Source: Escherichia coli
GTDB lineage: Bacteria; Pseudomonadota; Gammaproteobacteria; Enterobacterales; Enterobacteriaceae
Assembly (NCBI RefSeq): GCF_003991155.1
Contig: NZ_CP031293.1
Length of the DNA stretch: 64,000 bases
Strand: one strand, 5' to 3'
Made by a program: the position numbers and the translations under genes. Of the stretch, positions 3,150 to 61,170 are shown piece by piece (the first letter of the stretch is position 1; every line of letters begins with the position of its first letter). The notes under the pieces were generated by a model, which saw only the letters and a program-made list of their open reading frames with translations, made no database searches and was not told the origin of the DNA.

Positions 3150-3357
3150 GCGAGCAGGATTCCTGATTTTAAACGTGAACGCCGCAGGAAGAATCAACAG
3201 GCATAGAATGGCGTTGGGTGCTTGAGGCTGTCTGGCGTTAAGCATTCGCGAGGTTCCAGATGGACAAAAGCCCCAGGCGATATTTCTATCAACCTGAGGC
3301 CAGCGTTCGAACCTAAGCAATTCGGATGTTAGTCTCTTCTTTGCAGGGAGGCAAGAC

Positions 3358-3510
3358 ATGCTGACAAAATATGCCCTTGTGGCAATCATCGTACTGTGTT
3401 GTACAGTACTGGGATTCACGTTGATGGTAGGCGACTCGTTGTGTGAGTTGAGTATCAGAGAACGTGGTATGGAGTTTAAGGCAGTTCTCGCTTACGAATC
3501 GAAGAAGTAG
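3358..3510 (+). CDS. Hok/Gef-family type I toxin (50 aa, small membrane peptide)
   Basis: ORF below the 60-aa track cutoff, translated by hand: [50 protein letters not shown]; hydrophobic N-terminal helix plus SLCE and AYES motifs shared with Hok/Gef/RelF; GGGAGG Shine-Dalgarno 7 nt upstream. Confidence 0.8.
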
Positions 3511-14746: not shown

Positions 14747-14815
14747 TGTATGGGGAGTTGGTGTGTTTCGTCGCCTGGATAAGACACGTCAGCGTCCCAT
14801 CCGGCAATCAACATC

Positions 14816-15224
14816 CTATTTGCTCATCATCTTGCGCACCAGCTGCATAAACAGCTCCTGCTCTTCTGCACTCAAACGCCCCAAAAATTCCTCATCCACA
14901 CTGTCACCAATCGGTATCGCCGCAGCAAGTACCTTTTCTCCTTCGGCAGTCAGCCAGACAAAGCGTCGCCGCTTATCAGCAGAGTCATGTTCTCGTCTGA
15001 CTAAGCCACGATTTTCCATTCGTGCCAACATTTCTGCCAGCGTTGCTTTGGTGCTGACGGCTGCTTCTATCAGTGCCACCTGTTCGATACCAGGTTTATC
15101 AGCAATGGCGCGCATCACCGCGTACTGTGGTTTGGTCAGATCAGGTAACTCGTGCTGCCAGCGAGCCGTGTGCTGCTGAAAAAGCTGTCGTAACTGATGG
15201 AACGCTTTATTTCGTAACGCCATG
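14816..15224 (-). CDS. MarR/SlyA-family transcriptional regulator
   Basis: Winged-helix MarR-like sequence; ATG at 15224 has a GGAG Shine-Dalgarno, the longer 15256 start does not; divergent from the decarboxylase operon. Confidence 0.75.
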
Positions 15225-15369
15225 TAAACTCCGGGCAAACTATCTGCCGCTATCATAGCGGTTTTTCAGTGACGCAGGGGATGTTGTTACTTTTCAGTGC
15301 TTGCCGCGATGAGAACAGAGGCGTATTTTAATAATAACGTTCGTGTACGAACAATTAAGAGAATTAACA

Positions 15370-15963
15370 ATGAGACTGATCGTCGGGATGACAGGGGCCA
15401 CCGGAGCGCCTCTTGGTGTGGCATTACTGCAAGCGCTGCGGGAGATGCCGAATGTCGAGACTCATCTGGTGATGTCGAAGTGGGCGAAAACCACCATTGA
15501 ACTGGAAACGCCTTACAACGCCCGCGATGTTGCTGCCCTCGCAGACTTCTGCCATAACCCGGCGGATCAGGCCGCAACCATCTCCTCAGGTTCCTTTCGT
15601 ACCGACGGCATGATCGTTATTCCGTGCAGTATGAAAACGCTCGCCGGTATCCGTGCCGGTTACGCCGATGGCCTGGTGGGGCGCGCGGCGGACGTCGTGC
15701 TCAAAGAAGGCCGCAAACTGGTGCTGGTGCCGCGTGAAATGCCGCTTAGCACAATCCATCTCGAAAATATGCTCGCACTTTCGCGCATGGGCGTGGCGAT
15801 GGTGCCGCCGATGCCTGCCTTTTATAACCATCCCGAAACGGTAGATGACATTGTCCACCACGTGGTAGCCCGCGTGCTGGATCAATTTGGCCTCGAACAT
15901 CCTCACGCCAGGCGCTGGCAAGGATTGCCGCAGGCCCGGAATTTTTCTCAGGAGAATGAATAA
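15370..15963 (+). CDS. UbiX-family flavin prenyltransferase (decarboxylase subunit B-like)
   Basis: 197-aa ORF starting MRLIVGMTGATGA, typical UbiX/Pad1 N-terminus; first of three tightly linked genes. Confidence 0.8.
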   Translation: MRLIVGMTGATGAPLGVALLQALREMPNVETHLVMSKWAKTTIELETPYNARDVAALADFCHNPADQAATISSGSFRTDGMIVIPCSMKTLAGIRAGYADGLVGRAADVVLKEGRKLVLVPREMPLSTIHLENMLALSRMGVAMVPPMPAFYNHPETVDDIVHHVVARVLDQFGLEHPHARRWQGLPQARNFSQENE

Positions 15964-17390
15964 TGGCATTTGATGATTTACGCAGCTTTTTACAGGCGCT
16001 CGACGACCATGGGCAATTGCTGAAAATCAGCGAAGAGGTGAACGCGGAACCGGATCTGGCAGCAGCAGCTAACGCCACCGGGCGTATCGGCGACGGCGCG
16101 CCCGCGCTGTGGTTTGATAATATTCGCGGCTTTACCGATGCCCGCGTGGCAATGAACACCATCGGTTCCTGGCAGAACCACGCGATTTCCCTCGGCCTGC
16201 CGCCAAATACCCCGGTTAAAAAACAGATTGATGAGTTTATCCGCCGCTGGGATAACTTCCCGATTGCCCCGGAGCGCCGCGCCAATCCGGCCTGGGCGCA
16301 GAACACCGTTGATGGCGACGAGATCAACCTGTTCGATATCCTGCCGCTGTTTCGTTTAAACGATGGCGATGGCGGTTTCTATCTCGACAAAGCGTGCGTG
16401 GTTTCCCGCGATCCGCTTGATCCGGATAACTTCGGCAAGCAGAACGTCGGCATCTACCGTATGGAAGTGAAGGGTAAGCGTAAGCTCGGTCTGCAACCGG
16501 TGCCGATGCACGATATCGCCCTGCATCTGCATAAAGCGGAAGAGCGCGGTGAAGATCTGCCGATTGCCATCACCCTGGGTAACGACCCGATCATCACCCT
16601 GATGGGGGCCACGCCGCTGAAATACGATCAGTCCGAGTACGAAATGGCGGGCGCGCTGCGCGAAAGTCCGTACCCGATCGCCACCGCTCCGCTGACCGGT
16701 TTTGATGTGCCGTGGGGCTCGGAGGTGATCCTCGAAGGAGTCATCGAAAGCCGCAAACGCGAGATTGAAGGGCCATTCGGTGAGTTTACCGGCCACTACT
16801 CCGGCGGGCGCAATATGACCGTCGTGCGCATTGATAAAGTCTCTTATCGCAGCAAACCCATTTTTGAATCGCTCTATCTCGGGATGCCGTGGACGGAAAT
16901 CGACTACCTGATGGGGCCAGCCACCTGTGTGCCGCTGTATCAACAACTGAAAGCTGAGTTCCCGGAAGTGCAGGCGGTAAACGCCATGTACACCCACGGC
17001 CTGCTGGCGATTATCTCCACCAAAAAACGCTACGGTGGCTTTGCCCGCGCGGTGGGCCTCCGTGCGATGACCACGCCGCACGGTCTGGGCTACGTGAAGA
17101 TGGTGATTATGGTCGATGAAGACGTTGATCCGTTCAACCTGCCGCAGGTGATGTGGGCGCTCTCTTCGAAAGTGAACCCGGCAGGGGATTTGGTGCAGTT
17201 GCCGAATATGTCCGTGCTGGAACTCGACCCTGGCTCAAGTCCGGCGGGGATCACCGACAAGCTGATTATCGACGCCACCACGCCTGTCGCCCCGGACAAC
17301 CGTGGTCACTACAGTCAGCCGGTGGTGGATTTACCGGAAACCAAAGCCTGGGCTGAAAAACTGACCGCTATGCTGGCCGCACGTCAATAA
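15963..17390 (+). CDS. UbiD-family non-oxidative aromatic acid decarboxylase (subunit C-like)
   Basis: 475-aa ORF; start overlaps upstream stop; UbiD-like length and sequence. Confidence 0.8.
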   Translation: MAFDDLRSFLQALDDHGQLLKISEEVNAEPDLAAAANATGRIGDGAPALWFDNIRGFTDARVAMNTIGSWQNHAISLGLPPNTPVKKQIDEFIRRWDNFPIAPERRANPAWAQNTVDGDEINLFDILPLFRLNDGDGGFYLDKACVVSRDPLDPDNFGKQNVGIYRMEVKGKRKLGLQPVPMHDIALHLHKAEERGEDLPIAITLGNDPIITLMGATPLKYDQSEYEMAGALRESPYPIATAPLTGFDVPWGSEVILEGVIESRKREIEGPFGEFTGHYSGGRNMTVVRIDKVSYRSKPIFESLYLGMPWTEIDYLMGPATCVPLYQQLKAEFPEVQAVNAMYTHGLLAIISTKKRYGGFARAVGLRAMTTPHGLGYVKMVIMVDEDVDPFNLPQVMWALSSKVNPAGDLVQLPNMSVLELDPGSSPAGITDKLIIDATTPVAPDNRGHYSQPVVDLPETKAWAEKLTAMLAARQ

Positions 17391-17400
17391 GGAGAACAAG

Positions 17401-17637
17401 ATGATTTGTCCACGTTGTGCCGATGAACAGATTGAAGTGATGGCGAAATCGCCGGTAAAAGATGTCTGGACGGTATATCAGTGCCAGCATTGCCTTTATA
17501 CCTGGCGCGATACCGAACCGCTGCGCCGCACCAGCCGCGAACATTATCCCGAAGCGTTCCGCATGACGCAGAAAGATATTGATGACGCGCCGATGGTGCC
17601 GAGCATCCCGCCGCTGCTGGCGGAAGGTAAGTGTTAA
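17401..17637 (+). CDS. small decarboxylase subunit D-like protein with CxxC...CxxC motif
   Basis: 78-aa ORF MICPRCADEQ...CQHCLYTW, 10 bp downstream of the UbiD-like gene. Confidence 0.65.
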   Translation: MICPRCADEQIEVMAKSPVKDVWTVYQCQHCLYTWRDTEPLRRTSREHYPEAFRMTQKDIDDAPMVPSIPPLLAEGKC

Positions 17638-17646
17638 TAAAAAAGT

Positions 17647-17674
17647 GCCGGGTAGAGGCTTTGCTTTACCCGGC
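17647..17674. terminator. hairpin between convergent decarboxylase operon and pphB
   Basis: gccgggta...tacccggc 8-bp stem. Confidence 0.4.
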
Positions 17675-21671: not shown

Positions 21672-22100
21672 TTACGCTTTGGTGGCAATCAGGATGGCTG
21701 ATGCTTTGATCAATGCAATAACGCGCGAGCCAGTGGTGAGTTTCATTTCATCCTGACTTTCATTTGTTACCACTGCCACAATTTCAAAACCCGCATCCGT
21801 TTTGATATGGACAGTGGCGTTCACTGCGCCTTCGGTGATTGTCGACACGCTGCCAGCAAACTGGTTGCGAGCAGAGAATTTCAGTCCACAGTCTTCCGTT
21901 GCCAGTGTTACCCACGGGGCTTTAATCAGGGCAATCGCTTCTTTCCCTTTTGCCAGACCAAGAGCCTGCTGGCTGCTGTGTGTAACAATTGCCACCAGCT
22001 TTGCACCACCTGCCAGCGTCAGTTCTACTTCATCATTCACAGCGCCCATTGCTACTGCGCTAACTGTTCCGGTTAATTGATTTCTTGCTGAAACTGCCAT
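21672..22100 (-). CDS. tandem TOBE (Mop) domain molybdate-binding protein (molbindin)
   Basis: 142-aa product from MAVSARNQLTG; two SARNQ-containing repeats; AGGAGG Shine-Dalgarno before ATG at 22100. Confidence 0.75.
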   Translation of the reverse strand: MAVSARNQLTGTVSAVAMGAVNDEVELTLAGGAKLVAIVTHSSQQALGLAKGKEAIALIKAPWVTLATEDCGLKFSARNQFAGSVSTITEGAVNATVHIKTDAGFEIVAVVTNESQDEMKLTTGSRVIALIKASAILIATKA

Positions 22101-22144: not shown

Positions 22145-24223
22145 TTAAATCAATGCCGATTTATCAATTCCCAGTCGCTTCATCCGTGACAGCAGGGTCG
22201 TGCGTTTCAGCCCCAGACGTTGCGCAGCGCCTTTAGGTCCGGCAACCACGCCGTTAGTTTCTTTCAGCACGCGAACAATCAACTGATATTCATCTTCGCC
22301 CTCCTGAGCGACAACCGTTGCGGCAGGCGGCGTTTCAGGTTCTGGTAAAGCAATATCTGGCAATGACAGCTGCAGCACGTTGCCGCGTGTTAGCAATACC
22401 GCGCGCTCAATGACGTTTTCCAGCTCACGCACGTTGCCCGGCCATTCCATGTTGCTCAGGATGCGCAGCGTCTCGGCAGGAATGCTGTCGATATTGCGCC
22501 CCAGACGACGGGCAATTTTGAAGGTAAAGGCTTTCGCCAGCAGCGGAATATCTTCCGGACGCTCGCGTAGTGGCGGCAGGTGGATCGGGAATACGTTCAG
22601 GCGGTAATAGAGATCGCTACGGAACTCTCGGTCGGCGACCATTTTTTTCAGATCGCGGTTAGTCGCGGCAATTAAACGTACGTCCGTCTGAATGATTTTG
22701 TTGCTGCCAAGACGTTCAAACTCCTGTTCCTGTAATACACGCAGCAACTTCGGCTGTAACTCCAGCGGCATATCGCCCACTTCATCGAGGAATAGTGAGC
22801 TTTTATCCGCCAGTTCAAAACGACCAATGCGCTGAGCGCTGGCACCGGTAAAAGCCCCACGCTCATGACCAAATAGATCGCTTTCCAGCAATCCGGCAGG
22901 CATCGCCGCGCAGTTCATTTTGACCATGCGGCGATTATTACGCCCACTGAGATTATGGATCGCGCGGGCAATCAGCTCTTTACCTGTACCAGTTTCACCG
23001 AGGATCAGCACGGTACTGTCACTTTGCGCCACCATTTCAACTTGTTTAAGTACGCTGTACATGGCTTCGCTGCGGCCAATAATCTCGCCAAATTCACTAT
23101 CAACATTGTTGAGCTGCTCGGTCAGGGCGAGGTTTTCATCAACCAGCCGTTCTTTCAGACGATGAATTTCCTGATAGGCGAGGGCGTTATCGACAGCGAT
23201 TGCCACACGTTCGGCAATCTGGCGCAGTAAGCTCAGATTGGTAGTGGTAAATACTTTCTCTTCGCATTGCGCCAGTTTCAGCACGCCCAGCATGGTGTCG
23301 CCAGACATCAGCGGTAACAGGCACAAGGTTTGAATCTGGTTGCCCCAGGTGTCGAACAACATGCGTTCATAGGGGGCTAAATCGTCCCGCTCGTGGAGAT
23401 TAATCAACAGCATCTCTTTACTTTTGAAGACGCGTTCGGTGAGGGTTCCGGCTTCATCGACTTCGCTCTGTTCGTGGGCGGGATGCTGTTTATCAAGATA
23501 GTGAGTGGAGTAGATGTTGAGTTTGTTTTTACGGTGGCTGCGTAAGACAATGCTGATATCGTCAATGTCGAAATAGTAATGGATTTCTTTGGCGACTTCG
23601 CTGACCAGTTCGTCCATATCCAGGCGGGAAAGCACCGCGTTGGTGATGGCGACCAGGATGCGGAAGTTATCGCGTTCCCGGCATAACAACTCATAGTCGA
23701 CATTGTTAACGACGCGGCTCTGGATTTGTTCGGTGACGACAGAAACGATCTGCGTAAATGTTTGCAGGCGATTGAACTCTTTTTCACTCCACGGGCGATC
23801 GTCATAACGAATAAATTCACAGCCACCAAAAATATGCCCTTCCGCCGCCAGTGGCATCAGGCAATAGTGACCAAATTTGGGGTATAGCCCACCTGCGGCC
23901 AGCTGCGGCCAGGTTTCACAAAATTCTTCGTAACTGCAATGCAGCGTATCAGGGCGCGACAAAATGCTGCGTACCGGACCGTGTGCCAGAACAGTTTCGT
24001 CTTCATATTTAATGGGGGTGTCTTTTTCACGCGACGCGTAATAAGACGCACGTTGAGTCTGCGCTTGCCACAACACAATAGCCGCGTTGTCGGCGAGCGC
24101 AGAACGCTTTACCAGTTGCGAAAGAGCCTCACACAGCGAGGCCAGATCGGGCTGCTGCAATAGTGTCCGAGTGATGTCGAACAACCCTTGTTGTCCGAGA
24201 TCACTCATCGGTGTATATGACAT
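22145..24223 (-). CDS. fhlA: formate hydrogenlyase transcriptional activator (sigma-54 dependent)
   Basis: 692 aa from MSYTPMSDLGQQ; GAF domains plus AAA+ sigma-54 activator motifs ([14 protein letters not shown]) and C-terminal HTH. Confidence 0.95.
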   Translation of the reverse strand: MSYTPMSDLGQQGLFDITRTLLQQPDLASLCEALSQLVKRSALADNAAIVLWQAQTQRASYYASREKDTPIKYEDETVLAHGPVRSILSRPDTLHCSYEEFCETWPQLAAGGLYPKFGHYCLMPLAAEGHIFGGCEFIRYDDRPWSEKEFNRLQTFTQIVSVVTEQIQSRVVNNVDYELLCRERDNFRILVAITNAVLSRLDMDELVSEVAKEIHYYFDIDDISIVLRSHRKNKLNIYSTHYLDKQHPAHEQSEVDEAGTLTERVFKSKEMLLINLHERDDLAPYERMLFDTWGNQIQTLCLLPLMSGDTMLGVLKLAQCEEKVFTTTNLSLLRQIAERVAIAVDNALAYQEIHRLKERLVDENLALTEQLNNVDSEFGEIIGRSEAMYSVLKQVEMVAQSDSTVLILGETGTGKELIARAIHNLSGRNNRRMVKMNCAAMPAGLLESDLFGHERGAFTGASAQRIGRFELADKSSLFLDEVGDMPLELQPKLLRVLQEQEFERLGSNKIIQTDVRLIAATNRDLKKMVADREFRSDLYYRLNVFPIHLPPLRERPEDIPLLAKAFTFKIARRLGRNIDSIPAETLRILSNMEWPGNVRELENVIERAVLLTRGNVLQLSLPDIALPEPETPPAATVVAQEGEDEYQLIVRVLKETNGVVAGPKGAAQRLGLKRTTLLSRMKRLGIDKSALI

Positions 24224-26697: not shown

Positions 26698-27560
26698 CGC
26701 TGTGTCTCCAGCCAGTTCAGCCACTGGTCCATCCCTTCGCCGCTGGTGGCGGAAATAAGGATGATTTCAATTTCTGGATTGACTTCGCGGGCGCAGGCGA
26801 TGCACTTCTCAACGTCAAAGTTGAGATACGGCAGCAGGTCAACTTTGTTGAGCAGCATCAGTGAGGCGGCGGCAAACATATGTGGATATTTCAGCGGTTT
26901 GTCTTCACCTTCGGTAACGGAAAGCACCGCCACTTTGTGTTTTTCACCGAGATCGAAGCTCGCCGGACATACGAGGTTGCCAACGTTTTCGATAAACAGA
27001 ATACCGTTATCGTCCAGTGGCAGGCGCGGCGCGGCGTCGGCGATCATCTGTGCGTCAAGATGGCAACCTTTACCGGTATTCACCTGAATCGCTGGCGTGC
27101 CGGTAGCGCGAATGCGCGCGGCATCGTTCACGGTTTGCTGGTCGCCTTCAATCACCGCACACGGAACGCTATCTTTCAGGCGCATTAAGGTTTCCGTCAG
27201 CAGGGTGGTTTTACCGGAACCAGGGCTGGAAACCAGGTTGAGCACCAGTTGCTTGCGGGCAGCAAAGCGCGCGCGGTTGCGTTCAGCCAGACGGTTATTT
27301 TTGTCCAGCACGTCAATTTCGACTTCCAGCATCCGACGCTGGCTCATGCCCGGCGCGTGAGTGCCCGCTTCGCCATGACCGTAATGCAGGTCGCCTTCTT
27401 CAGTCTGGCTGGGGGTAAATTCAGGCGTTTTAATGCCGGTGATTTTCATCTTCGGGCGTGCCGCCGGGGCAAATGGCGCGCTACGAAACGCGGAATGAGG
27501 GTTATGTTCATCACCCTCGATATACAGGTTGCCTTCACCGCAACCGCATGTTGTACACAT
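26688..27560 (-). CDS. hypB: hydrogenase nickel incorporation GTPase HypB
   Basis: 290-aa ORF; His-rich N-terminal region and GTPase motif GSGKTT. Confidence 0.93.
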
Positions 27561-27563
27561 CGC

Positions 27564-27914
27564 TCACTCCTGGTCTATTTCTATCCGCCGAATCTGTAAA
27601 CCGTCGTCTGCCACAATCTGTAGCATATCACCATGACACTGTGGACAGCGGCGGACGCGCTGGGTCAGTAGCGTCACATACTGTTGGCATGTTTCACACC
27701 AGCATTCGGCCTCTTGTTCTTCGAGGTGCAGTTTACAACCTTCCGCCACGCTGCCGCGGCAAACCAGATCAAAACAAAAGGCAAGAGAGCTGGTTTCGAC
27801 ACAAGAAAATGCGCCAATTTTGAGCCAGACCCCAGTTACGCGTTTTGCGCCGTGTTTTGCGGCCTGCTGTTCGATCAATTCCAGTGCCCGTTGGCAGAGG
27901 GTTATTTCGTGCAT
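27564..27914 (-). CDS. hypA: hydrogenase nickel incorporation protein HypA
   Basis: 116 aa from MHEITLCQ; GGGAGG Shine-Dalgarno; zinc-finger Cys pairs. Confidence 0.9.
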   Translation of the reverse strand: MHEITLCQRALELIEQQAAKHGAKRVTGVWLKIGAFSCVETSSLAFCFDLVCRGSVAEGCKLHLEEQEAECWCETCQQYVTLLTQRVRRCPQCHGDMLQIVADDGLQIRRIEIDQE

Positions 27915-27944
27915 ATCGCCTCCCATTAACTATCGCCAGCTACA

Positions 27945-27960
27945 AGCAATAATTGTGCCA
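27945..27960 (-). promoter_or_regulatory. sigma-54 (-24/-12) promoter for hyp operon
   Basis: Minus-strand reading TGGCAC-aatta-TTGCT, about 30 bp upstream of hypA. Confidence 0.7.
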
Positions 27961-28073
27961 GTGTTGATTATCCCTGCGGTGAATAATGTCGATGATGTCG
28001 AAATGACACGTCGACACGGCGACGAAATTCATCTTTAGCTTAAAAATCTCTTTAATAACAATAAATTAAAAGT

Positions 28074-28089
28074 TGGCACAGAAAATGCT
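28074..28089 (+). promoter_or_regulatory. sigma-54 (-24/-12) promoter for hyc operon
   Basis: TGGCAC-agaaa-ATGCT, about 37 bp upstream of hycA start. Confidence 0.7.
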
Positions 28090-28125
28090 TAAAGCTGGCA
28101 TCTCTGTTAAACGGGTAACCTGACA

Positions 28126-28587
28126 ATGACTATTTGGGAAATAAGCGAGAAAGCCGATTACATCGCACAGCGGCATCGTCGCCTACAGGACCAGTGGCAC
28201 ATCTACTGCAATTCGCTGGTTCAGGGGATCACGTTATCGAAAGCGCGCCTGCATCACGCCATGAGTTGCGCGCCGGACAAAGAACTCTGTTTCGTCCTTT
28301 TTGAACATTTTCGTATTTATGTCACCCTGGCGGATGGCTTTAACAGCCACACCATCGAGTATTACGTCGAAACAAAAGATGGTGAAGACAAACAGCGGAT
28401 TGCGCAGGCGCAACTGAGCATTGACGGCATGATTGATGGCAAGGTCAACATCCGCGATCGCGAACAAGTTCTGGAACACTATCTCGAAAAAATCGCTGGC
28501 GTTTACGACAGCTTATATACCGCCATTGAAAACAATGTGCCGGTGAATTTAAGCCAACTGGTAAAGGGACAAAGCCCGGCAGCATGA
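28126..28587 (+). CDS. hycA: formate hydrogenlyase regulatory protein HycA
   Basis: 153-aa ORF in first position of the hyc operon. Confidence 0.9.
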   Translation: MTIWEISEKADYIAQRHRRLQDQWHIYCNSLVQGITLSKARLHHAMSCAPDKELCFVLFEHFRIYVTLADGFNSHTIEYYVETKDGEDKQRIAQAQLSIDGMIDGKVNIRDREQVLEHYLEKIAGVYDSLYTAIENNVPVNLSQLVKGQSPAA

Positions 28588-28711
28588 GCTGAGGCTTTGC
28601 CCGTTTTGCAGGCGTTACGCCTGTTTGGGGATGGGCGTGTCGATGAGTGTCGAAAATGACATTTCATCGGCATGTTTTCGTCAAAAATGACAATCACCTG
28701 AGGAATGACTG

Positions 28712-29323
28712 GTGAATCGTTTTGTAATTGCTGACTCCACGCTCTGTATCGGCTGTCACACCTGTGAGGCCGCCTGTTCAGAGACGCATCGCCAGCATGG
28801 GCTGCAATCTATGCCGCGCCTGCGAGTGATGTTGAATGAAAAAGAATCTGCGCCACAACTTTGCCACCACTGTGAAGATGCACCCTGCGCAACGGTCTGC
28901 CCGGTTAACGCCATCACCCGCGTTGATGGGGCTGTGCAGCTAAATGAAAGTCTGTGCGTAAGCTGCAAACTGTGCGGCATCGCCTGCCCGTTTGGCGCAA
29001 TTGAATTTTCCGGCAGCCGTCCGCTGGATATTCCGGCAAACGCCAATACTCCGAAAGCGCCACCGGCACCGCCTGCTCCGGCGCGTGTCAGTACGCTGCT
29101 TGACTGGGTGCCAGGTATTCGCGCGATCGCCGTCAAATGTGACCTTTGCAGTTTTGATGAACAAGGTCCGGCCTGCGTGCGGATGTGCCCGACTAAAGCC
29201 CTGCATCTGGTGGATAACACCGATATCGCCCGCGTCAGCAAACGTAAGCGTGAGCTGACTTTTAACACGGACTTTGGCGATCTCACCTTGTTTCAGCAGG
29301 CTCAAAGTGGAGAGGCTAAATGA
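28712..29323 (+). CDS. hycB: formate hydrogenlyase subunit 2 (4Fe-4S ferredoxin-type)
   Basis: 203-aa ORF with multiple CxxCxxCxxxCP motifs. Confidence 0.93.
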   Translation: MNRFVIADSTLCIGCHTCEAACSETHRQHGLQSMPRLRVMLNEKESAPQLCHHCEDAPCATVCPVNAITRVDGAVQLNESLCVSCKLCGIACPFGAIEFSGSRPLDIPANANTPKAPPAPPAPARVSTLLDWVPGIRAIAVKCDLCSFDEQGPACVRMCPTKALHLVDNTDIARVSKRKRELTFNTDFGDLTLFQQAQSGEAK

Positions 29324-36009: not shown

Positions 36010-36783
36010 TTGAACATCAAAACAGGGATGTGCGCTTTTTTATTGAGCTTAGTGCTGCCTGCACAGGCCACCAGCTTTACCGAATATCTGCCAATGAGTG
36101 ACAGCGAATACGCGCAAAAGCGGGCGCTGAAACCTCTCCTGACTATGCCTTATTATACCGAGCAAACCTGGCATTTTAGAAAAGTGGGCGTTGCTGGCGT
36201 GACGCTTGAGAAGATGCCAAATGATGATAGTGAATGGCAATTGAACGGTAAAGATCGCGCCGGTAAATCCTGGTCTGTGCCTGTGGGGGTGCTGCAAAAT
36301 ATGGCGGGTAATGCGCAACTTTACCGTGCCGATCTTGATCGTAACGGCATTCAGGATCTGGTTATCTGGCGGGGTATTTCAGGAAATGGTCTGGCACCTA
36401 ACGCGTTTTTGATTCTGATGACCTTTAATCAGCAAGGTCGCCCGTGTGTTTTTCAGTCCGATAGTTTTTATACCGCAAGTGAAACTGGCATTGATGATTT
36501 GCTGGATTTACAAAGGAATGGCCACACGCAATTGCTGGATATGCAGTTTGATTCCGGTTACTGGATAACCAGTCTGTATCAGGTAAAAGACGCCAAATGG
36601 CAGCGTGTTCACGGCTGGTTTGGCAAGTTAAGCTATCCCGCGCTCACGCGTTTTACTTATACCCCCAACCGTAAACTCGTCCTCAAACCCATCGCCGGGC
36701 GCGACCCGCAATCGGAAGATCTGGCGCTGACGCAGCGTTGCTTGATAAAGGGGGATGTTCTTGATGGGGTGAACCAGCTCTGA
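36010..36783 (+). CDS. hypothetical exported protein (predicted signal peptide, cleavage near AQA-TS)
   Basis: 257-aa ORF 24 bp after hycI, same strand; TTG start gives MNIKTGMCAFLLSLVLPAQA (ATG at 36028 is an alternative); no recognised family. Confidence 0.55.
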   Translation: MNIKTGMCAFLLSLVLPAQATSFTEYLPMSDSEYAQKRALKPLLTMPYYTEQTWHFRKVGVAGVTLEKMPNDDSEWQLNGKDRAGKSWSVPVGVLQNMAGNAQLYRADLDRNGIQDLVIWRGISGNGLAPNAFLILMTFNQQGRPCVFQSDSFYTASETGIDDLLDLQRNGHTQLLDMQFDSGYWITSLYQVKDAKWQRVHGWFGKLSYPALTRFTYTPNRKLVLKPIAGRDPQSEDLALTQRCLIKGDVLDGVNQL

Positions 36784-46792: not shown

Positions 46793-46809
46793 TTGCAGAT
46801 TGCGTGCCA
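46793..46809 (-). promoter_or_regulatory. sigma-54 (-24/-12) promoter for norVW
   Basis: Minus-strand reading TGGCAC-gcaat-CTGCA. Confidence 0.7.
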
Positions 46810-60578: not shown

Positions 60579-60671
60579 GGTGAGGTGGCCGAGAGGCTGA
60601 AGGCGCTCCCCTGCTAAGGGAGTATGCGGTCAAAAGCTGCATCCGGGGTTCGAATCCCCGCCTCACCGCCA
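60579..60671 (+). tRNA. serV: tRNA-Ser (anticodon GCU)
   Basis: 93-nt cloverleaf with long variable arm; GGTGAGG...CCTCACCGCCA; anticodon loop CTGCTAA. Confidence 0.93.
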
Positions 60672-60674
60672 TTT

Positions 60675-60751
60675 GCATCCGTAGCTCAGCTGGATAGAGT
60701 ACTCGGCTACGAACCGAGCGGTCGGAGGTTCGAATCCTCCCGGATGCACCA
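60675..60751 (+). tRNA. argV: tRNA-Arg (anticodon ACG), copy 1
   Basis: 77-nt GCATCCGTAGCTCAGCTGGATAGAG...CGGATGCACCA; anticodon loop CTACGAA; copy-to-gene-name assignment is tentative. Confidence 0.93.
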
Positions 60752-60815
60752 TCTCTTACTTGATACGGCTTTAGTGGCGGTATCAAAAAATCTGCAGTAA
60801 AGTAAGTTTCCCGAT

Positions 60816-60892
60816 GCATCCGTAGCTCAGCTGGATAGAGTACTCGGCTACGAACCGAGCGGTCGGAGGTTCGAATCCTCCCGGATGCACCA
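60816..60892 (+). tRNA. argY: tRNA-Arg (anticodon ACG), copy 2
   Basis: Identical 77-nt sequence; name assignment tentative. Confidence 0.93.
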
Positions 60893-60954
60893 TCTCTTAC
60901 TTGATATGGCTTTAGTAGCGGTATCAATATCAGCAGTAAAATAAATTTCCCGAT

Positions 60955-61031
60955 GCATCCGTAGCTCAGCTGGATAGAGTACTCGGCTACGAACCGAGCG
61001 GTCGGAGGTTCGAATCCTCCCGGATGCACCA
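60955..61031 (+). tRNA. argZ: tRNA-Arg (anticodon ACG), copy 3
   Basis: Identical 77-nt sequence; name assignment tentative. Confidence 0.93.
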
Positions 61032-61093
61032 TCTCTTACTTGATATGGCTTTAGTAGCGGTATCAATATCAGCAGTAAAATAAATTTCCCGAT

Positions 61094-61170
61094 GCATCCG
61101 TAGCTCAGCTGGATAGAGTACTCGGCTACGAACCGAGCGGTCGGAGGTTCGAATCCTCCCGGATGCACCA
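61094..61170 (+). tRNA. argQ: tRNA-Arg (anticodon ACG), copy 4
   Basis: Identical 77-nt sequence; name assignment tentative. Confidence 0.93.

Follow-up and report, generated by a model that had tools for sequence, protein, structure and literature searches.

The intergenic region between hypA and hycA in the analysed window, a 64-kb stretch of an E. coli chromosome, carries two back-to-back sigma-54 promoters and is almost certainly the divergent control region of the formate regulon, working by the sigma-54/FhlA mechanism proposed below. The motifs, their placement, their orthology to the K-12 sites, their conservation across genera and the intact fhlA and hycA genes were all observed in the present analysis. 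As the element is the same as the hycA and hypA promoters of K-12, it is already known, and as the copy of this strain is almost identical to that of K-12, the finding is correct but ordinary. The region that controls formate hydrogenlyase (hydrogenase 3) and the genes for its maturation is thus intact in this strain and resembles that of the reference. This helps annotation and provides a positive control when raw sequence is read by its motifs; the knowledge of sigma-54 or FhlA regulation is not extended by it.

Divergent sigma-54 promoters between hypA and hycA

The hypA-hycA spacer occupies positions 27915-28125 (211 bp). The promoters and the genes that flank them are as follows:

27564..27914, minus strand: hypA coding sequence, 116 aa (open reading frame; NCBIfam HypA NF002979, 241.8 bits)
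27945..27960, minus strand: sigma-54 -24/-12 promoter of hypA (hypABCDE-fhlA), TGGCACAATTATTGCT (exact pattern match, RpoN matrix)
28074..28089, plus strand: sigma-54 -24/-12 promoter of hycA (hycABCDEFGHI), TGGCACAGAAAATGCT (exact pattern match, RpoN matrix)
28126..28587, plus strand: hycA, the FhlA antagonist, 153 aa (NCBIfam NF007567, 301.3 bits)

The hypA gene begins with an ATG at 27914 and bears this name in the annotation of the near-identical strain CREC-544. The plus strand at 27945-27960 is agcaataattgtgcca, the reverse complement of which is TGGCAC-AATTA-TTGCT, and the plus strand at 28074-28089 is TGGCAC-AGAAA-ATGCT. Both motifs named by an earlier sequence-only reading, TGGCAC-N5-TTGCT on the minus strand and TGGCAC-N5-ATGCT on the plus strand, can be read directly at these positions as exact pattern matches. 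Since hypA lies on the minus strand and hycA on the plus strand, the motifs face their own genes, back to back. The same reading had placed them correctly upstream of hypA and hycA, and this holds for the orientation as well as for the predicted leaders of 20 and 26 nt. The motifs are real, and the observation of a divergent promoter pair is confirmed.

The search of both strands of the 64-kb window with the pattern TGGCACNNNNNWTGCT returned two matches, both of them these promoters, where 0.15 were expected; a count of two or more was not reached in any of 100 shuffles. The weight matrix derived from 186 RpoN promoters (PMC7658346, Table 2), scanned over approximately 128,000 positions of the window, ranked the hypA site first with 19.06 bits and the hycA site third with 15.60 bits; the second rank was taken by the known norV promoter. 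The hyp promoter agrees in full with the RpoN consensus TGGCAC-N5-TTGCW at exact spacing. The hyc promoter has the GG/GC core and the exact spacing, and the first position of its -12 element is A instead of T, as it is in K-12. The two promoters also resemble each other: the stretches 27935-27960 and 28074-28099 form an imperfect inverted repeat of 26 nt (77% complementary), and the likeness runs beyond the -12 element as far as the predicted start, both promoters having GCTTnnAGCTGGC (8 of the 10 bases downstream of -12). The mutual similarity of the hyp and hyc promoters is weaker in other genera.

Identity with the K-12 region and published evidence for sigma-54 binding

The segment 27560-28720 is 100% identical to that of strain CREC-544, from which the window differs over 41 kb by one indel only, and the segment was found in 5425 of 5426 complete E. 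coli genomes. The alignment to the characterised hyc/hyp promoter region of K-12 MG1655 showed 209 identical bases out of 211, the spacer being 211 bp long in both strains. The flanking genes, the hyp motif, the 113-bp separation of the -24 elements and the leader lengths are likewise those of the K-12 hycA/hypA promoters, and the only differences are two SNPs, at 27934 (C here, T in K-12) and at 28081 (G here, A in K-12). Both are outside the GG/GC cores, and the SNP at 28081 falls in the unconserved five-base spacer of the hyc promoter. The hycA-hycB spacer with its flanks (28580-28720) is identical to K-12 in 140 of 141 positions.

The hyp motif is identical to the K-12 ChIP-seq site OS28, CTGGCACAATTATTGCT, and the hyc motif differs from the K-12 site OS27, TTGGCACAAAAAATGCT, solely in the spacer base 28081. 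OS28 (hypA) and OS27 (hycA) are sigma-54 ChIP-seq peaks in K-12 (Bonocora et al. 2015, PMC4591121); their fold above threshold, 201 and 91, respectively, is among the highest in the table, and both are marked there as experimentally confirmed promoters in EcoCyc (PMC4591121). Genomic SELEX showed that the RpoN holoenzyme binds the hycA/hypA spacer. The first description of the divergent NtrA-dependent promoters is that of Lutz, Bohm, Beier and Bock (1990, Mol Microbiol 4:13), as cited in PMC3844500.

In Salmonella Typhimurium LT2, hycA (STM2853) and hypA (STM2854) also have back-to-back promoters with the same 113 bp between the -24 elements; these orthologous sites are bound by sigma-54 according to ChIP-chip (Samuels et al. 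2013, PMC3844500), and FhlA is listed as their activator (PMC3844500). The expression of hyc was 26-fold and that of hyp 5.6-fold higher in the wild type than in the rpoN mutant, both strains containing the constitutive activator DctD250 (PMC3844500). Unlike the present locus, both Salmonella promoters have TGGCAT in place of TGGCAC at -24, and the AT-rich tract has diverged.

The match to the FhlA-activated divergent hyp/hyc region, which had been claimed from the letters of the sequence, is therefore supported by the orthologous position, the 209/211 identity to K-12 and the ChIP-confirmed K-12 motifs. From the literature on the orthologous sites of K-12 and Salmonella, we infer that sigma-54 occupies the sites in this strain as well. 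That the locus is regulated as in reference strains, as had also been suggested, can reasonably be inferred from the sequence, although this is not proof. The genes rpoN and ihfAB are located outside the 64-kb window.

Predicted transcription starts, the hycA leader and the strain alleles

The rule of Bonocora et al. (2015, PMC4591121), by which transcription begins 19 nt downstream from the middle of the 17-nt motif, was used to predict the starts:

27934, minus strand: predicted start of hyp transcription, 20 nt upstream of the ATG of hypA (PMC4591121 rule)
28100..28125, plus strand: predicted hyc transcription start, at 28100, and hycA 5' leader (PMC4591121 rule; leader conservation)

The predicted starts precede the start codons by 20 nt (hypA) and 26 nt (hycA), and the K-12 distances for both operons are likewise 20 and 26 nt (PMC4591121). 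The last 25 nt of the hycA leader (28101-28125, ATCTCTGTTAAACGGGTAACCTGACA) are nearly invariant among Escherichia, Salmonella, Citrobacter and Intestinirhabdus, with a conservation above that of the surrounding and promoter spacers. The leader is without an obvious strong Shine-Dalgarno sequence. Its conservation may reflect an element of translational or post-transcriptional control.

The two SNPs raise an alternative in which the promoters are the known ones and the changes 27934 T>C and 28081 A>G alter the output or the choice of start, so that regulation is not quite that of K-12. Of 5405 E. coli records, only 47 have an identical copy of the 71-nt segment on the hyp side (27915-27985), and 457 of 5426 have one of the 76-nt segment on the hyc side, so both alleles of the strain are minority ones; that the mismatch of other strains is at 27934 itself is confirmed for the six strains aligned. 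The change at 27934 moreover affects the very base from which transcription is predicted to begin, the transcribed strand having G in place of A. However, both SNPs leave the GG/GC cores untouched, and the exchange of one purine for another at +1 is conservative. The hyc promoter with G at 28081 has a matrix score a little above that of the K-12 allele (15.60 vs. 15.42 bits), and this G is common to UPEC 536, E. albertii and E. whittamii. A departure from K-12 regulation is thus very improbable. That the rare +1 SNP at 27934 tunes the hyp-fhlA output is likewise an unlikely reading.

In E. coli FDAARGOS_1288, the 5' leader of hypA is interrupted by an IS5 element at a TTAA equivalent to window positions 27926-27929. 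As this point is downstream of the predicted hyp start and upstream of the ribosome-binding site of hypA, hypA is about 1.2 kb away from its sigma-54 promoter in that strain, and the insertion is a natural disruption of the control region.

Conservation within E. coli and across genera

Among seven diverse E. coli strains, the GG/GC cores of both promoters and the block 27979-28031 are invariant, and the variable positions cluster near the predicted starts and within the AT-rich tract (28032-28068). When about 100,000 species-representative genomes were scanned with the promoter pattern, 15 hyp-hyc spacers of enterobacteria were obtained, originating from Escherichia albertii, E. whittamii, other Escherichia, several Citrobacter, Intestinirhabdus and Salmonella diarizonae. 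The -24 elements are exactly 113 bp apart in 13 of the 15 spacers. As the pattern required both promoters, the set shows how far the layout reaches and not how frequently it is lost; for the same reason, the hyp motif kept in the 14 loci of other species is to be read as a property of loci that were retrieved by demanding it. The cross-genus alignment showed four conserved islands: the hyp -12/-24 elements, the block of the upstream activating sequence (UAS), the hyc -24/-12 elements and the hycA leader.

That an AT-rich spacer happens to match the consensus twice, with hyp and hyc transcribed from other (sigma-70) promoters, is scarcely credible, because the sigma-70-like hexamer pair present on the plus strand at 27926-27953 is within shuffle expectation and points away from hypA, whereas the two exact matches against 0.15 expected, the RpoN matrix ranks 1 and 3, the cross-genus conservation and the direct sigma-54 occupancy of identical or near-identical sites in K-12 and Salmonella all argue for the sigma-54 pair. 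The ChIP and expression data in the literature in effect already refute a chance origin of both motifs. The consensus scan of 27400-28800 for sigma-70 promoters and terminators gave matches no more frequent than expected from shuffles. The search for FNR sites in and around hypA, made with the internal hypB promoter in view, returned only matches with two or three mismatches, and the Rfam and tRNA scans found no matches in the spacer.

Candidate FhlA sites and the IHF-like tract

Three further features were delimited in the hypA-hycA and hycA-hycB spacers:

27986..28027, strand not assigned: candidate shared FhlA upstream activating sequence, ATGTCGATGATGTCGAAATGACACGTCGACACGGCGACGAAA (tandem ATRATGTCG and GACACGKC repeats)
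28035..28072, strand not assigned: AT-rich tract (80-90% A+T) with an IHF-like site (AT profile; TAACAATAAATTA at 28056-28068)
28638..28692, strand not assigned: candidate second cluster of FhlA sites, in the hycA-hycB spacer, TGTCGATGAGTGTCGAAAATGACA...CGTCAAAAATGACA (FhlA matrix, repeats, conservation)

The FhlA sites were searched for with a 14-nt matrix based on 13 characterised sites (PMC7658346), which was used in place of the 16-mer given in a review; the review consensus, CATTTCGTACGAAATG (PMC4987338), had no match with three or fewer mismatches in the whole window. The best match of the matrix in the 64-kb window is located in the hycA-hycB spacer (28648-28661, TGTCGAAAATGACA) and reaches 17.52 of the possible 17.76 bits. 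The second best lies between the two promoters (27987-28000, TGTCGATGATGTCG), within the conserved repeat block 27986-28027, and the proposed search for FhlA sites between the promoters was therefore positive. The fifth match is again in the hycA-hycB spacer (28679-28692). These top ranks are partly circular, as the matrix probably includes the K-12 versions of the same sites.

Conservation across strains and genera gives the putative FhlA clusters independent support. The conserved UAS island has the form ATGWCGAYRATGWCGAAATGACAYGTC...GCGWCGAAA (window 27986-28027), and its core is shared by Escherichia, Citrobacter, Salmonella and Intestinirhabdus. The second cluster, composed of a 13-nt direct repeat at 31-nt spacing together with inverted repeats, is identical in K-12 and O157 and near-invariant across the same genera, while the remaining hycA-hycB spacer diverges. 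The sequence TAACAATAAATTA has one mismatch to the IHF consensus WATCAANNNNTTR and is weak evidence when taken alone, as the window contains 44 one-mismatch matches. IHF is reported to bind between the UAS and the hyc promoter, a result attributed to Hopper et al. (1994). The inter-promoter cluster is likewise said to serve hyc and the hycA-hycB cluster to serve hyp, according to work attributed to Schlensog et al. (1994) and Hopper et al. (1994).

Directly after the hycA stop codon (window 28588-28635), a short hairpin CAGGCG-TTA-CGCCTG followed by TTTGGGG is present. The same position in other genera is occupied by different sequences that appear inverted-repeat-like by eye (e.g., TCGTGA...TCACGA), which suggests that a structure is retained upstream of the second FhlA cluster.

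FhlA, HycA and the proposed mechanism

The gene of the activator is found in the same window:

22145..24223, minus strand: fhlA, encoding the sigma-54 activator that senses formate; last gene in the hyp operon (NCBIfam NF011958)

FhlA (692 aa) scores 1546.8 bits with NF011958, for which the cut-off is 830. The protein is identical to that of K-12 in 687 of 692 residues (99%), and the GAFTGA motif and the 52 C-terminal residues, which form the DNA-binding end, are unchanged. HycA is identical to its K-12 counterpart in all 153 residues. Both fhlA and hycA are thus intact in the window.

For K-12, the literature describes an fhlA-dependent induction of hyc and hyp by formate under anaerobiosis; FhlA, and probably IHF, would bind the control region. 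In the mechanism proposed here, sigma-54 RNA polymerase would stand as a closed complex at each pair of -24/-12 elements, directed toward hypA at 27960..27945 and toward hycA at 28074..28089. During fermentation, the accumulating formate would activate the enhancer-binding protein FhlA, which would then bind the repeat block 27986-28027 and the cluster 28638-28692 and open the promoter complexes by ATP hydrolysis. Bending at the AT-rich, IHF-like tract (28035-28072) probably aids the contact of FhlA with the hyc promoter. The leftward transcript (hypABCDE-fhlA) would begin near 27934 and the rightward one (hycABCDEFGHI, comprising the structural genes and the antagonist gene) near 28100. The expected result is a positive feedback loop by way of fhlA and a negative one by way of hycA.

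Other sigma-54 promoters and a sigma-54-like motif in the window

Three more sites with a sigma-54-like sequence were noted:

28195-28210, plus (sense) strand: sigma-54-like motif inside hycA, TGGCACATCTACTGCA, 15.16 bits
41125-41140, plus strand: hydN sigma-54 promoter, TGGCATGATTTGTGAA, upstream of hydN-hypF
46809..46794, minus strand: norV sigma-54 promoter, TGGCACGCAATCTGCA, 48 nt upstream of norV and divergent from norR

The norV and hydN promoters match the sites OS25 and OS26 of Bonocora et al. (2015). With these known promoters, the window contains four sigma-54 promoters and two activator genes, fhlA and norR.

The motif TGGCACATCTACTGCA takes the fourth rank in the window with the RpoN matrix, about equal to the hyc promoter. 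It is kept as TGGCAY-N5-YTGCA in 15 of 16 sequences from four genera, the sequence of Citrobacter sp. MGH106 having TGGCGT. As the motif overlies the conserved codons QWHIYCN, the Cys codon offers its only free core position; this codon is TGC in 16 of 16 sequences, which is weak evidence beyond coding constraint. The site is absent from the ChIP-seq tables and supplements, including the published intragenic sigma-54 peaks. A function of this putative third sigma-54 site, as a binding site or as a promoter, is therefore unlikely. If it were functional, the site together with the FhlA cluster located 430-500 bp downstream could transcribe hycB-I without hycA, the anti-activator gene.

Comparison with other promoter systems

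The other sigma-54 promoters of the formate regulon (fdhF, hydN-hypF and hyfA) and the divergent norR/norV region are also enhancer-dependent and of the -24/-12 type. In contrast to the back-to-back pair between hypA and hycA, the fdhF, hydN-hypF, hyfA and norV promoters are single, and norV uses NorR and not FhlA.

An unrelated family of back-to-back sigma-54-like promoters, AGCAAATCCCGTGCCAA ... TTTGGCATGTTTTATGCT, was seen in rumen Lentisphaeria and uncultured MAG contigs (loci L012, L014, L018, L020, L025, L027, L030, L042 and L045). The pattern matches there are 143-145 nt long, corresponding to 111-113 nt between the -24 elements, and TTTACA-N6-TGTAAT repeats lie in between. The right-hand promoter of locus L025 is followed by a glutamine-amidotransferase gene, carA and pyrG.

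Other content of the window

Differences in gene content from K-12 were taken from the annotations of the near-identical strain CREC-544. Unlike K-12, the mutS-rpoS interval (about 14800-17650) contains a MarR-family regulator and the subunits B, C and D of a hydroxyarylic acid decarboxylase. A gene encoding a 142-aa TOBE-domain protein (21672-22100) between fhlA and ygbA and a hypothetical gene of 251 aa (36028-36783) between hycI and ascB are further features unlike K-12. The Rfam scan identified a sok antitoxin RNA of a hok/sok-type locus on the plus strand (3216-3373, 110 bits). A tRNA cluster on the plus strand (60579-61170) consists of one Ser(GCT) gene and four identical Arg(ACG) genes.
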